The notes: a model not told the origin generated them from the sequence alone. A DNA stretch of 64,000 nucleotides from Acidobacteriota bacterium (GCA_965205505.1 CBDBHB010000009.1:128001-192000), one strand, 5' to 3'. Shown: positions 52,251-63,202, counted from the first letter of the stretch. Translations and numbers: made by a program.

Positions 52251-52295
52251 AACTGGTTCGACGAGCTGAAGCGGCTCGTGCCGACGGATCAGTAG
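52251..52295 (+). pseudogene. orphan C-terminal tail of PD40-type Ser/Thr kinase
   Basis: NWFDELKRLVPTDQ*, the recalled family terminus (NWFEELKRLVP). Confidence 0.65.
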
Positions 52296-52505
52296 CGTCG
52301 TCAGGCGCCGTTCCGAACAGCGCCGTCCCCCAACGTCGTGGGTAGTTGCCATGCGTCACAGCGAGCCGTGCACGGCTCCGCAGCGGGTGCTAGGTACCAG
52401 GAGTACTTCATAGGGGCGCCGCGTTACCAGCGCAGCCTTCCCCGGTACCCGGAGCGCCGAGCCGATAGGATCGAGATGTGTTGGCGTCAACCGAGGAGGC
52501 GAGGC

Positions 52506-53000
52506 ATGCACGGCGACATCGATCGACTGGTAGGAACGTACGAGGCAGGGCACATCAGCCGGAGACGGCTGGTCACGCAGCTGAGCGCGATGACGGCGCT
52601 CGTGACAACCGTTGGTTTGGCCTCTGGTGCTCAGCCCCGGAGCACCGGGCAGGATGCCGGAGCGACATTCCAGGCTGTGGGCCTCAACCACATCGCCCTC
52701 AGTGTCGCCGACATACCGCGGTCGCGCGACTTCTACGTTCGACATCTCGGTCTGACGGTCTCGCGCGAGTCCGCCAGCAGTTGCTTCCTGGATTGCGGGC
52801 CGCACTTCGTCGCCCTGTTCCGCAGTCGCTCACCCGGTCTGAACCACTACTGTTACGAAGTCGAAGGCTACGACGTGAACGCGGCGGCGGAGACCCTACG
52901 CGCCAATGACCTGCCCCCGCGGGTGTCTGGCGGCCGCATCTACTTCGACGACCCCGACGGCCTCGAAGTGCAGCTCGCCGCGCCGGGCCATGGCGCATGA
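52506..53000 (+). CDS. VOC/glyoxalase family protein with Tat-like leader
   Basis: ISRRRLV, LNHIALSV.D..RSRDFY, LNHYCY, YFDDPDGLEVQL. Confidence 0.85.
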   Translation: MHGDIDRLVGTYEAGHISRRRLVTQLSAMTALVTTVGLASGAQPRSTGQDAGATFQAVGLNHIALSVADIPRSRDFYVRHLGLTVSRESASSCFLDCGPHFVALFRSRSPGLNHYCYEVEGYDVNAAAETLRANDLPPRVSGGRIYFDDPDGLEVQLAAPGHGA

Positions 53001-53057
53001 CGCACTGCAGTGGCGAAGTCTTTCGGTGACGGGTAGCCTCCGACGACGGGAGGACAT

Positions 53058-54974
53058 GTGGAACCCGGTACCCGACTAGGCCCCTACGAAATCACCGAGC
53101 AGCTCGGTGCTGGCGGCATGGGAGAGGTGTACCTGGCGCAGGACACCCGCTTGGGCCGCAAGGTGGCCATCAAGGTGCTGCCCGCCGAGTTCGCCTCTGA
53201 CCCCGAGCGCCTCGCCCGCTTCGAGCAGGAGGCCCGAGCTGCTGCTGCCCTGAACCACCCGCACATCGCAGCGGTCTTTGATGTCGGCACCGAAGACGGC
53301 ACCCACTTCATGGTGCAGGAGTACCTGGAGGGAGACACGCTGCGGGAGCCGCTACAGAGGGGTGCGTTGCCGCTCAAAAAGGCGCTCGGGTTGGCCACCG
53401 AGATCGCCGAGGCGCTGGCAGCAGCACACGTCGCCGGGATCATCCACCGGGATCTGAAGCCGGAGAACATCTTCGTCACCAAGGAGGGCCACGCCAAGGT
53501 GCTGGATTTCGGGTTGGCGAAGCTCACCGAGGTGGCCGGGGCAGGCTCTCCGGGCGGTGCGACCCAGTCACCCACCATGATGGGCACGGTGGCCGGTCAG
53601 GTGATGGGAACCGCTGGCTACATGGCCCCCGAGCAGGTTGAGGGCTCCGAGGAGATCGACCATCGGGCCGACCTGTTCTCCTTCGGCTGCGTGCTCCAAG
53701 AGATGGCCTCAGGGACGCGAGCCTTCGGTGGCAAGAACGTCACTGAGGTTCTGCATCACCTGCTCAACAGTGACCCCGAGCCGATGGCCGACGGGCTGCC
53801 GCTGAAGCTGCACTGGATCCTCGACAAGTGCCTGGCAAAGGAACCTACTCGGCGCTACCAGAATGCCGATGACCTCGTTGTTGACCTGAAGGCACTGGCC
53901 CGCGAGGTGGAGTCGGGCGCAGCACGCTCTGCGCAAGACGCCGAGGCAGGAGGGTCCGAGGATCCGCGCGGGGCGATCCTGCCCACCCGTGCGCTAGTGC
54001 CGGTCGGGGTATCCATCATCGCAACGGCGATCGTTTTCGGAGCCGCCGGGTATTGGTCTGGAGTCGGGAGCAGTGAGGGTGATGATGCAATGGGCCGGCA
54101 GGGTCAGGTCAGCACGGCAACCGAGATCAGCCTTCCGCCGGAGACCCCTCTCCCGCTCGGCGGGCGAGCCACTGAGGTGGGCTTTGACAACCCTTCGATT
54201 GCTCTTTCACCGGATGGTTCGTTGCTTGTTTTCGTCGGAATGTCCGGTGCCACAACGCAACTGTACCGGCGGGAGATGAACGGTTTCGATGTCGACGCGA
54301 TCCCCGGCACGGAGGGAGCCACTCACGCTTTCTTCTCGCCCGATGGCGAGTCTCTCGGGTTTCTCACCAATAACCAGGTGAAGAGAGCGTTGCTTCGGGG
54401 AGACCCGCCGCAGACCCTGTGTGATGCACGAAGCCCGGTTACCGCAACCTGGACCCGCAACGATGCGATCTACTACACGTCGCAACAACGGAGTCGGTTG
54501 TCGCTCGTCGAGGCCGGGGGCGGGGAATGCCGGGAAGTTGGGCCCGAAGTTGGGAGCCGCAGCTACGGCAAAGTACTGCCGGAGGGCAAATGGGCATTGG
54601 TCGGCGACAGTGACGTGCACAGCGCCGGTGACTACCGTGACATTCAACTGCTGTCGCTTGAAACCCTCGAAACGAGGCTGCTCATCCGTAATGGGTACGA
54701 CGCTCGCTACATCGGCACGGGCCACATCCTTTTTGGGCGCTCCGGAGGACTCTACGCCGTTCCCTTCGACCTCGCCGGCCTGACGGTGACGGGCGAGCCG
54801 GTGCTGGTGGCTCGTGACGTTCGCATGGACTCGTTCTTTTCCGTAATCCAGGTAGCGGCGTCTGACAACGGCATCGTTGCTTATGTGCCGGGGGGCGATG
54901 CCTCGGTCGGAAAAATGGCCTGGATTGATCGTGACGGCACAACGGAGTATCTATCTGGTCTACGTCTCTCTTAG
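53058..54974 (+). CDS. Ser/Thr protein kinase + TM + PD40 propeller, apparently 3'-truncated
   Basis: [33 protein letters not shown] repeats; ends just after MAWIDRDG with no family tail. Confidence 0.9.
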   Translation: MEPGTRLGPYEITEQLGAGGMGEVYLAQDTRLGRKVAIKVLPAEFASDPERLARFEQEARAAAALNHPHIAAVFDVGTEDGTHFMVQEYLEGDTLREPLQRGALPLKKALGLATEIAEALAAAHVAGIIHRDLKPENIFVTKEGHAKVLDFGLAKLTEVAGAGSPGGATQSPTMMGTVAGQVMGTAGYMAPEQVEGSEEIDHRADLFSFGCVLQEMASGTRAFGGKNVTEVLHHLLNSDPEPMADGLPLKLHWILDKCLAKEPTRRYQNADDLVVDLKALAREVESGAARSAQDAEAGGSEDPRGAILPTRALVPVGVSIIATAIVFGAAGYWSGVGSSEGDDAMGRQGQVSTATEISLPPETPLPLGGRATEVGFDNPSIALSPDGSLLVFVGMSGATTQLYRREMNGFDVDAIPGTEGATHAFFSPDGESLGFLTNNQVKRALLRGDPPQTLCDARSPVTATWTRNDAIYYTSQQRSRLSLVEAGGGECREVGPEVGSRSYGKVLPEGKWALVGDSDVHSAGDYRDIQLLSLETLETRLLIRNGYDARYIGTGHILFGRSGGLYAVPFDLAGLTVTGEPVLVARDVRMDSFFSVIQVAASDNGIVAYVPGGDASVGKMAWIDRDGTTEYLSGLRLS

Positions 54975-55102
54975 TATCGCGTATTGCCACTCGCCGTCAC
55001 CCACTGCCCCGACCGCTCTGGACCCCAGTCTCGCGAGCTCCCTCCCCCCTGCTGCCCCGTGGCAGGCAGTCAATCTGGCGCCGCAGGGACGCTGCCTCTC
55101 CG

Positions 55103-55131
55103 TGGACCCTCGCACGCTCCAGCGATAGGCT
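55103..55131 (+). promoter_or_regulatory. putative sigma70 promoter TGGACC-N17-TAGGCT
   Basis: Repeated at 61946-61974 and 63167-63195 with 17-nt spacer. Confidence 0.6.
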
Positions 55132-55164
55132 TCACGCGCCCGCCCATGACACATCAGGAGCGCC

Positions 55165-61661: not shown

Positions 61662-61723
61662 GCGTTCCGGACACGAAACCGAACGGGAGATGGAGCAAGT
61701 CCCTCGGCGCGATGAGCCGCGGG

Positions 61724-61856
61724 GGTACTGTCAAGTTAAAACTCGAAATCAGCGAGAAACGCGTGATCCATGAACCTCAAGGCCCTTGCCCTGCGGGCGT
61801 TTCACTTCCGGCCAAGAGGCCTCAGCTGTCCGTAGGCGAGTTCACCTGATAGCACC
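61724..61856. mobile_element. MITE copy A (133 bp, right TIR degenerate)
   Basis: GGTACTGTCAAGTTAA...GAGTTCACCTGATAGCACC; closely matches reverse complement of 63203-63332. Confidence 0.8.
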
Positions 61857-61945
61857 CTTCGTGTCTTGAAGAATAGCGTCGCTCCACGGGCCGTAGAGCC
61901 TTTCTTCGTGAAAGCTCAGCGACGGAAGCGAAACGCCCCCTCCCG

Positions 61946-62064
61946 TGGACCCTCGCCCACCCCAGCGATAGGCTTCAGGCGCTCACCCACCCTCTGGTAG
62001 CGCCATGGAACCCGGCACCCGACTAGGCGAGTACGAGATCCTCGACCGTCTCGGTGCGGGTGGA
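61946..62064 (+). pseudogene. promoter + kinase 5' stub (20 codons)
   Basis: TGGACC-N17-[26 protein letters not shown] from 62005. Confidence 0.85.
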
Positions 62065-62150
62065 CGTGGCGATCAGCGCGCCGCTTATGCGCGACTTCGT
62101 GGCCCGCAACGTCTATGCCACCGACTGAACCGAGAACACACACCCTGACC

Positions 62151-63134
62151 ATGGACACGAAGACAATGAAAGCGGCGCTGATGCGCAAGCCAGGCGCACC
62201 CGAGGTGCTGGCGATTGAGGAGTTGCCGGTTCCTGAACCAGCGCCCGGGTGGGTACTCATCCGAGTGAAAGCGTTCGGGCTCAACCGCTCCGAGCTTTTC
62301 ACGCGACAGGGTCACTCACCGGGGGTGACGTTTCCCCGTGTACTTGGCATTGAGGCGGTGGGAATTGTGGAGGACACGCCGGGCGGCGAGTTCAAACCGG
62401 GGCAAACCGTGGCCACCGCGATGGGAGGCATGGGTCGGCAGTTTGATGGCGGCTACGCCGAGTACACCTGCGTACCTGCCATGCAGATACAAGCGATCAA
62501 CACGACGTTGGATTGGCAAACGTTGGGCGCACTGCCCGAGATGGTCCAGACCGCCTGGGGCTCGCTCACCAGTGCCTTGCGGCTGCAACCTGGTCAGAGC
62601 TTGCTGATTCGCGGTGGCACCACGTCGGTGGGCTTGGCCGCCGCGGCGCTGGCCAAACAGCAAGGCGCGACCGTCGCCGCGACGACCAGAAAAGCTGACC
62701 GTCAAGCCATGCTCGAAGGCAACGGCGCGGATCATGTGTTTATCGACAGCGGTGAGATCGCCGACGATGTACACGGCGTCTTCCCCGACGGTGTGGACAA
62801 GGTGCTGGAGCTCGTCGGAACCACCACGCTACTCGACTCGCTGCGGTGCGCTGCGCGTTGCGGCTCCGTGTGCATGACCGGCATGGTCGGCAACGCCTGG
62901 GAGCTTGAGCGATTCAGTCCGATGGGCGCGATCCCGTCCACGGTGAGCCTGACCACTTATGCGGGCGGCGACCGGGACTTCATTGACACACCGCTACAGA
63001 GGGTGGTGAACGACGTAGAGGAGGGTCGTATAACGCCTAAGATCGGACGAGTCTTTCAGCTCGACGACATCGTGGAGGCGCACCGTTGTATGGAAGACAA
63101 CGCAGCTGGCGGCAAGATCGTCGTCCTGACCTGA
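62151..63134 (+). CDS. MDR-family (zinc-binding ADH-like / quinone) oxidoreductase
   Basis: [34 protein letters not shown]. Confidence 0.9.
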
Positions 63135-63163
63135 GACAGGGGATCGCGACTCTAGGCAATACT

Positions 63164-63202
63164 CCGTTGGATCTCGCACGCTCCGGCGATAGGCTTCACC
63201 CG
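63164..63202 (+). promoter_or_regulatory. kinase promoter stub interrupted by MITE
   Basis: ccgttggatctcgcacgctccggcgataggcttcacccg nearly identical to 55100-55138. Confidence 0.75.

Follow-up and report, generated by a model that had tools for sequence, protein, structure and literature searches.

Why should the 5' ends of one Ser/Thr kinase family stand repeatedly, all in the same orientation, among genes unrelated to them? The question is raised by a 64,000-nt stretch of DNA from an uncultured Acidobacteriota bacterium (the window; G000:C9:128001-192000), which belongs to a metagenome-derived assembly of 5.98 Mb in 9 contigs (G000). An initial annotation, made from the sequence alone, had described here five copies of a kinase promoter and/or 5' end and an orphan kinase 3' tail, and had tentatively attributed the array to the insertion of cargo-carrying segments into resident kinase starts. 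Repeat finding on 50000-64000 of the window placed four co-oriented coding 5' ends (MEPGT(K/R)LG..., repeat family D2) at 53053, 55160, 56712 and 62000, and three copies of an upstream module (a 47-nt repeat, family D3) at 55100, 61943 and 63164. The coding ends, the module copies and the tail all lie where they had been put; the five positions hold, but the conserved module is found at only three of them, the sequences upstream of 53058 and 56717 being different. Direct reading confirmed stubs of 33, 17 and 20 codons at 55165, 56717 and 62005. With no more than the Gly-rich loop left (17-33 codons), they cannot be kinases.

We compared G000 with its relatives G002, G003 and G004, of which G004 is the nearest species. 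The reading that we favour, with a probability of about 55%, is that kinase genes of this family act as sites of disruption and arrival, that deletions trim them to a module that is retained as a captured promoter, and that modules, insertion sequences of the IS3 family and miniature inverted-repeat transposable elements (MITEs) reshuffle the resulting units.

Reality, number and form of the stubs

An assembly artefact at a repeated 5' end has to be considered, as the 5' end occurs in more than 40 copies and the genome is a nine-contig metagenome assembly. Four runs, each from a different study (X1, X15, X18 and X20), supplied Logan contigs that were aligned to 50000-64000. The junction at 55263 is bridged by X18 record 19 (55185-55674) and by X15 record 12 (55234-57144, with only 30 nt on the left side), that at 56766 by X15 record 12, X18 record 21, X20 record 29 and X1 record 6, and that at 63202 by X20 record 32. 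These contigs show 0-9 differences from the window. Position 62067 is covered in three runs (X15, X1 and X20). Because contigs of four independent studies bridge three stub junctions, mis-assembly, the doubt raised by the initial annotation itself, is excluded for the stubs. G004 and G002 show the same junctions, and a false join within the repeat should have given a hybrid kinase rather than a stub followed by unrelated DNA; we regard an artefact as extremely improbable. Contig joints such as 52297 to 55165 were not used, their sides being shorter than 30 nt and the joints probably paralogous tail-to-start junctions. At 54952 no bridging contig was found among the matches listed; X1 record 4 and X20 record 28 cease to match there yet run on for 377 and 2314 letters. 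Since G004 homology ends at the same position, 54952 is taken as a strain-variable border at a kinase end.

The stubs are a genome-wide feature. G000, to which all stub counts refer (matches in the relatives cannot tell stubs from diverged full genes), has 42 5' ends of the MEPGT type: 4 belong to intact genes (at least 800 aa), 6 to long but truncated or frameshifted ones, and 32 are stubs. Kinase homology in the stubs covers 23-570 nt, with a median of about 100 nt, and is no longer than 120 nt in 20 of the 32. All the breaks thus lie in the first 570 of about 2650 nt, a non-random distribution; under a model of uniform breakage the probability that all 32 fall within the first 600 of 2650 nt is about 1e-21. 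The break at a Gly codon, described as common to the window stubs, survives as a tendency and not as a strict rule: breaks cluster at GGC-rich spots, including five at nt 23-25 that adjoin a CTAG word. An IS5-type insertion at this word was considered as the cause of the five and dropped, no common sequence being present after the breaks.

Could the stubs simply be neutral debris of a larger kinase family that is being lost amid insertion sequences and MITEs? Many kinase copies do bear frameshifts, internal deletions and inversions. G000 has about 25 kinase 3' tails, at least 5 of them orphaned by a stop within 25 codons upstream, and the genome contains at least 19 IS3 left ends and 59 matches to MITE ends (with up to 3 mismatches), which come from about 12 paired copies and many solo ends. 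However, plain decay should leave fragments along the whole gene, and the 32 5' stubs compare with only about ten internal and 3' fragments. The -10-like motif and the leader of the module are conserved or swapped for intact family versions, next to non-coding sequence that is 90-96% identical, and one junction persists in three species. Decay as the whole explanation is thus improbable.

What the 5' ends share extends upstream of the start codon. The module, recognised by its -10-like motif, is present at 33 of the 42 5' ends, 26 of which are stubs. It spans -67 to -1 with a sharp left edge, and its consensus is CCGT(G/T)GA.C.TCGC..GC.CCAGCGATAGGCTTCAGGCGCTCACCCACCC..CT.TGGTAGCGCC ATG; copies match at 76-90% identity over 90-170 nt. 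From its motifs it can be read as a putative promoter with a -35-like TTGGAT/GTGGAC, a 17-nt spacer, a -10-like TAGGCT and a 30-nt leader, in which the arms of a hairpin are nearly invariant among copies. A scan of 50000-64000 against Rfam, with E up to 1, returned nothing but a chance match to a miRNA. A sub-family of longer modules has an extra 80 nt upstream (...GCCGTAGAGCC...TTCGTGAA.GCTC.CCGACGG...), with members at window 61870-61942, at G000:C8:341850-341926 and at about 3640-3720 of locus L021.

The genes that follow the module copies belong to unrelated Pfam families. Open reading frames (ORFs) after the stubs were called by a filter on third-position G+C content (GC3), and protein families were assigned by comparison with Pfam, NCBIfam and PDB. 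Among the 20 stubs of up to 120 nt, 12 are followed by a co-oriented high-GC3 ORF, either fused in frame or beginning no more than 150 nt beyond the break, often only 10-60 nt after it; 2-3 run up against the stop of a convergent gene, and 5 are ambiguous. The cargo includes a periplasmic binding protein, a beta-lactamase-fold hydrolase, a PD40 propeller, a Rieske oxygenase subunit, sulfatases, a DUF1800 protein, FAD oxidoreductases, an M24 peptidase and a sodium-solute symporter. Chains in which co-oriented 5' ends stand 1.5-5 kb apart occur in the window and, with six stubs, at C9:1403348-1417615.

Deletion, recombination and exchange at the junctions

The origin of a junction can be traced in two cases. 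In the window, the stub at 55165-55263 breaks at a TGGGC that it shares with an IS3-end footprint present in G003. There a parent-like arrangement is found, with a kinase remnant of about 340 codons, the 27-nt footprint and then the same dehydrogenase cargo, and the 55263 junction equals this arrangement minus about 930 nt between the TGGGC of codons 32-33 and the TGGGC of the footprint. The footprint itself (locus L012, 6612-6637, on G003:C2) consists of both IS3 ends (GACCTGCCCCAAGTGTTTGGGCAGGTC) with nothing between them and adjoins the dehydrogenase gene. At the second junction, 62064, G004 has the same stub break plus 61 nt bounded by GGACG repeats, which are missing in G000. A third comparison concerns the module at 63164, which is identical in G000 and G004 up to TTCA and continues into a kinase 5' end in G004 and into a MITE in G000. 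Together, the two traced junctions and the 63164 comparison show that deletion trims the sequence between module and cargo and that elements cut modules.

Recombination left its mark on three cassettes. The unit at G000:C8:341997 is made up of the module, 25 nt of kinase stub, a leader of 50 nt and then a PD40 gene. G000, G004 and G002 share its junction, and the DNA upstream of the module differs wholly among them; in G003 the gene has another upstream sequence, without the module. Between G000 and G004 the module and stub are 80% identical (77/96), the leader 96% (48/50) and the ORF 97%; the corresponding values are 76%, 90% and 95% for G000 and G002, and 80%, 94% and 97% for G004 and G002. 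The leader, although non-coding, is conserved to the same degree as the gene, so that the drop in module and stub cannot be put down to neutral drift at a faster rate; they appear from these alignments to have been replaced up to the limit of family homology. In the MDR cassette of the window, identity to G004 is 81.5% in the stub versus 97.8% in the cargo, and a paralog within G000, at C9:1417615, matches the G000 stub better (89.4%). A sulfatase cassette occurs in three G000 copies with one junction, between ...EVYRAR and S..., and in one copy the upstream sequence and the first 19 codons are those of a different kinase type and still make a valid kinase start. Site-specific insertion of this cargo into kinases was rejected, because the sulfatase gene precedes the start of the next kinase and not the rest of an interrupted one. 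All three cassettes keep junction and cargo while the module and stub or the upstream flank is replaced, in line with the role in homologous recombination that had been proposed for the conserved 5' end. Such identity breaks at conserved junctions point to homologous recombination among module copies.

The cargo moves between species. Over positions 1-35162 the window is collinear with G004:C15 (87-93% identity) and also with G002 and G003 (75-85%), and collinearity with the related species stops at about 35160. From there on the window is a mosaic of segments that are 94-98% identical to G004, G003 or G002 and lie at unrelated places in those genomes. A segment with an L-PSP gene and a kinase tail is 97.7% identical to G004; the 2-hydroxyacid dehydrogenase segment is 96.6% identical to G004 and 94.9% to G003, in other contexts there; and the NHL gene shows 98.3%, 97.3% and 96.1% identity across the relatives. 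The second stub array, at C9:1401000-1421000, has the same pattern of scattered high-identity segments. Cargo that is so similar yet so scattered, in species with a core identity of 75-93%, indicates recent exchange, and the initial view of the cargo genes as exchangeable units is upheld. The surroundings of the NHL gene differ from genome to genome: in G002 a kinase stub of about 55 codons lies directly 5' of its ATG, in G003 a kinase tail (FFDELNRLAPTDK-stop) follows directly after its stop codon and an IS3-type gene lies upstream, and in G000 and G004 solo MITE ends stand on both sides. In G004:C8 the L-PSP and kinase tail segment occurs twice in inverted orientation (36641-38050 and 58448-59858), with kinase 5' ends at 40036 and 56463; this pair is a large inverted duplication in a 67-kb contig.

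These results bear on the mechanism first put forward for the array, in which circular or linear segments of cargo, module and kinase start integrate by homology into a resident kinase start. Each such event leaves an upstream stub, and the co-oriented chains in the window and at C9:1403348-1417615 fit it, as does the MDR unit of G004, which has the order stub-cargo-module-kinase. The 80 nt that stand before the module of the C8:341997 unit in G000 recur in G004 behind the cargo, which is what a circularly permuted unit would show; the identity breaks at junctions and the sulfatase copy with a hybrid stub suit this mechanism as well. Against it, the 32 different junctions would each need an illegitimate event of their own, and both traced junctions arose or shrank by deletion instead of by insertion of a cargo and promoter segment. 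Stepwise building of arrays fares no better: for 20 of the 32 stubs the next 5' end downstream is over 5 kb away, so that they do not stand at the head of a close array; the window array contains no intact kinase at its end or elsewhere; and IS3 ends, MITE ends and kinase 3' tails mark segment borders as well. The contigs of the four runs revealed no circular junction. We consider strict insertion unlikely.

The elements at some borders invite another explanation, that cutting in or close to kinase 5' ends is the work of a site-specific enzyme of the MITE family, of IS3 or of another kind. One IS3 end lies behind the stub at C9:2325555, and another behind the sulfatase cargo on C8. MITE ends adjoin four stubs (C8:440543, C8:343226, C9:2050535 and C9:2098580), a MITE cuts the 63164 module, and solo MITE ends border horizontally shared single-gene segments, among them both sides of the NHL segment. 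A 13-nt word common to 55291 and 61838 resembles a MITE end, and chance was dropped as its explanation once this resemblance was noticed; it starts the 2-hydroxyacid dehydrogenase segment, at whose right end no such word was found. The five breaks next to CTAG could be counted here too. However, most of the 32 junctions are without an element end, and the break positions range from 23 to 570 nt. The MDR unit lies between inverted MITE copies at 61724-61856 and 63203-63332, with no evident target-site duplication at 63203/63332, and its copy in G004 is without MITEs; no autonomous partner of the 130-nt MITE was found. A dedicated element is therefore a very improbable cause of the stubs as a whole.

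Under promoter capture, the reading that we prefer, a kinase gene would first be broken by an insertion, by an IS3- or MITE-linked rearrangement or by an illegitimate join, and an unrelated gene, often recently exchanged, would land downstream of the conserved module. Short-homology deletions, of the kind seen at the two traced junctions, would then drop the dead kinase sequence between the module and the ribosome site of the new gene, leaving the module and 8-35 codons. The module would be retained because it now expresses the new gene. The 40-odd similar modules of each genome may then recombine, overwriting stubs up to the junction, where identity breaks, and placing units of module, stub and cargo beside new flanks, within a species or in another one; these flanks are observed, and the route is what we infer from them. 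Co-oriented arrays like that of the window could arise from this reshuffling, and no dedicated recombinase would be required.

A more far-reaching possibility, which we put forward tentatively, is that the module and first codons form an integrase-free system of gene capture, combining the roles of a portable expression signal and of a homology handle present in many copies. Genes arriving singly from related species would integrate by general recombination, be expressed at once and be passed on as units, and the system would be a functional analogue of an integron promoter plus attachment site, built from a paralogous gene family.

Several points weigh against capture and trimming as set out above. 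Parent arrangements are traceable for two junctions only. Co-oriented neighbours are common in bacteria, so that the 12 of 20 stubs with a co-oriented ORF are weak evidence when taken alone, and these ORFs were called without a gene finder. Some stubs, including that at 56717, face convergent genes, and a promoter captured there would serve no obvious purpose. The distribution of lengths would be the same if breakage were mechanistically biased towards the 5' end, and selection for short leaders is assumed; the model also leaves five independent breaks at nt 23-25 unexplained. A strict sigma-70 scan of 54950-63400 found no site, and the leader hairpin (GGCGCU...AGCGCC) is no more stable than shuffled sequences (z 0.2-0.6). 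For the C8:341997 module, comparison with the G000 copies gave no candidate donor of the replaced tract that is closer than the G004 copy.

Relation to known systems

Putative mobile promoters were surveyed by Matus-Garcia, Nijveen and van Passel (2012; PMC3575422), who found mostly pairs and whose survey, in which the mode of movement was not known, examined -150 to -50 and dropped cases running into coding sequence. Like mobile promoters, the module provides similar upstream sequence (76-90% over 90-170 nt) to non-homologous genes, both within a genome and between species. Copies reach the similarity by which mobile promoters were defined, at least 80% over at least 50 nt, in a region that runs from -67 to -1 and on into coding sequence instead of from -150 to -50. 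Unlike the surveyed cases, they form one family with at least 26 reused copies per genome, each with the first codons of the donor gene, which reveal the origin of the module.

C-terminal displacement arrays of Rhs and contact-dependent inhibition (CDI) systems were reportedly described by Jackson et al. in 2009. In type VI secretion system (T6SS) effector-immunity and Rhs arrays (Kirchberger et al. 2017; PMC5361080), a conserved gene part anchors incoming DNA and orphan pieces accumulate; homology-facilitated illegitimate recombination is proposed there, with no integrase. The kinase stubs are alike in that the orphan fragments (32 stubs) keep the conserved anchor and identity breaks at the junction. 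They are the mirror image of displacement arrays, a 5' end and the sequence upstream of it serving as anchor and 5' stubs being left as orphans. They differ further in their cargo of unrelated metabolic genes in place of variants of one toxin, in the lack of an intact master gene and in landing sites that are spread over about 40 family members.

Like integrons, the stub arrays consist of co-oriented single-gene units of varied function, which are exchanged between species and supplied with an upstream signal. Unlike integrons, they have no adjacent IntI and no attC at unit ends, each unit has a module, break points vary, and the DUF885 gene lies on the opposite strand. A true integron is present elsewhere, at G000:C8:1206890-1215181 (locus L039, 1887-10182). 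Its IntI gene, at C8:1214363-1215181, scores 350 bits against a cut-off of 265 (TIGR02249), and at least 4 attC sites of 67-131 nt (GYCTAAC...GTTAGRC) lie on the 3' side of the integrase gene at C8:1206890-1213720, an inverted arrangement. IntI is above the cut-off nowhere else in G000, and the sole tyrosine recombinase of the window is of the P4 type and at least 15 kb from the array. attC sites of this type, the only type searched for, were absent from the window and from C9, and repeat finding gave no shared imperfect palindrome at cargo ends. The window array is not an integron. The description of it as integron-like but without IntI or attC is right for the array, and has to be set beside the true integron of the same genome and the P4-type integrase that heads the island.

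The kinase stubs can be read as a probable case of promoter capture combined with anchor-mediated displacement, and are unusual in their number, their persistence across species and their recombination signal. We found no paper on this phenomenon or on the family, in a literature search too narrow to claim that it is unpublished. Should the module prove to be an active promoter, a single regulatory signal would have reached dozens of unrelated metabolic genes, including those for sulfatases, oxidoreductases, peptidases, transporters and binding proteins, and much of the flexible gene pool would be under a control that formerly belonged to a sensor-kinase family. If recombination between modules places incoming genes, expanded gene families would serve as landing pads or exchange handles for horizontal transfer with no dedicated enzyme. 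Annotators should note that the short 'kinase' ORFs of this genome, which number dozens, are scars, and that in several cases the gene downstream may have been wrongly extended into them.

Organisation of the window array

Within the array each unit has its own module (55100, 61943 and 63164) rather than one shared array promoter. It begins with the orphan kinase 3' tail (NWFDELKRLVPTDQ-stop) at 52251-52295 on the plus strand, which has a stop codon directly 5' of it and sits within the segment that is 97.7% identical to G004:C8. A glyoxalase/VOC gene follows on the plus strand (52338-53000, probable start 52506; Pfam Glyoxalase) and is 93.9% identical to G004:C7; the G004 homology stops at 53013, 45 nt 5' of the kinase start. 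The kinase gene at 53058-54974 (plus strand, GTG start, no conserved module) is the sole member of the array with a full catalytic domain (Pkinase, 1.3e-46, residues 10-268). It had been called the long kinase gene, which holds for its complete Pkinase domain; the protein is nevertheless truncated, ending at 638 aa versus 880-903 aa in intact paralogs, with the gene shortened at 54952.

Family members elsewhere show further rearrangements and pairings. In one paralog (G000:C9:1138390-1138500) exactly 48 bp with the Gly loop are inverted between the inverted words GGCGGCAT and ATGTCGCC, and at C9:2797825 a stub runs into the DFG region of its own kinase gene in inverted orientation. Two kinase subtypes are paired with an overlap of stop and start (TGATGG) at G000:C9:2054860-2054915 and C9:1437040-1437095, which suggests translational coupling.

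The first module copy of the window (55100-55164, plus strand) has GTGGAC, 17 nt, TAGGCT and a leader ending in GCGCC ATG. The plus-strand stub behind it runs for 33 codons and then reads VR-stop, and is 93% identical to the 53058 gene over 98 nt. Its cargo, assigned by family match, is a D-2-hydroxyacid dehydrogenase gene at 55403-56458 (plus strand), in a segment (55267-56504) with homologs in G003 and G004. The N-terminus of this protein (55403-55460) is hydrophobic (MMKVLRGLGMLVVLVVMGA) and resembles a signal peptide or membrane anchor, which is unusual for the family. The 17-codon stub at 56717-56767 (plus strand), without the conserved module, converges on the DUF885 gene at 56881-58704 (minus strand), of which only 56881-57614 matches G004 (97.3%).

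Farther on, a fragment of an IS3 left end, identified by comparison with the IS3 end and beginning with GACCTGCCCCAAGTGTT, lies at 58742-58885 (plus strand) and is followed by an ORF of 486 aa at 58940-60400 (plus strand) that has no match in Pfam, NCBIfam or PDB. A solo MITE inverted-repeat end at 60423-60439 (minus strand) forms the left border of the NHL segment common to G004, and the gene of the NHL-repeat protein, 96-98% identical in G002, G003 and G004, occupies 60504-61661 (plus strand). The MITE copy at 61724-61856 (minus strand, repeat family I1) is inverted relative to that at 63203. A module copy of family D3 (61943-62004) precedes the 20-codon stub (62005-62064), both on the plus strand; the stub passes into the final codons of an NHL-type gene that is otherwise lost (62065-62114; family D5), and the cargo is a zinc-type alcohol dehydrogenase gene of the MDR family (62115-63134, plus strand) in a segment (62059-63198) that is 97.8% identical to G004:C2. 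The copy at 63164-63202 (plus strand) is the upstream module only, as had been described, and is cut after TTCA by the 130-nt MITE at 63203-63332 (plus strand, family I2), which has 17-nt inverted ends (GGTACTGTCAAGTTAAC). Of the unrelated genes reported between the kinase copies, the VOC, 2-hydroxyacid dehydrogenase, DUF885, NHL and MDR genes were recovered, and the M24 gene was unconfirmed.

Upstream of the array, a P4-type tyrosine integrase gene at 36692-38023 (plus strand; Pfam Arm-DNA-bind_3, Phage_int_M and Phage_integrase, and an NCBIfam integrase domain) lies just past the end of synteny and probably marks the border of an island; no tRNA gene was found within the window. An IS3-family insertion sequence of 1.26 kb is present at 46355-47615 (minus strand; rve/HTH_21; NF033516, 237 bits against a cut-off of 160), and a second copy lies at about 38403-39669. 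Copies of this element are 99-100% identical in G004, and at least 45 are present in G003.

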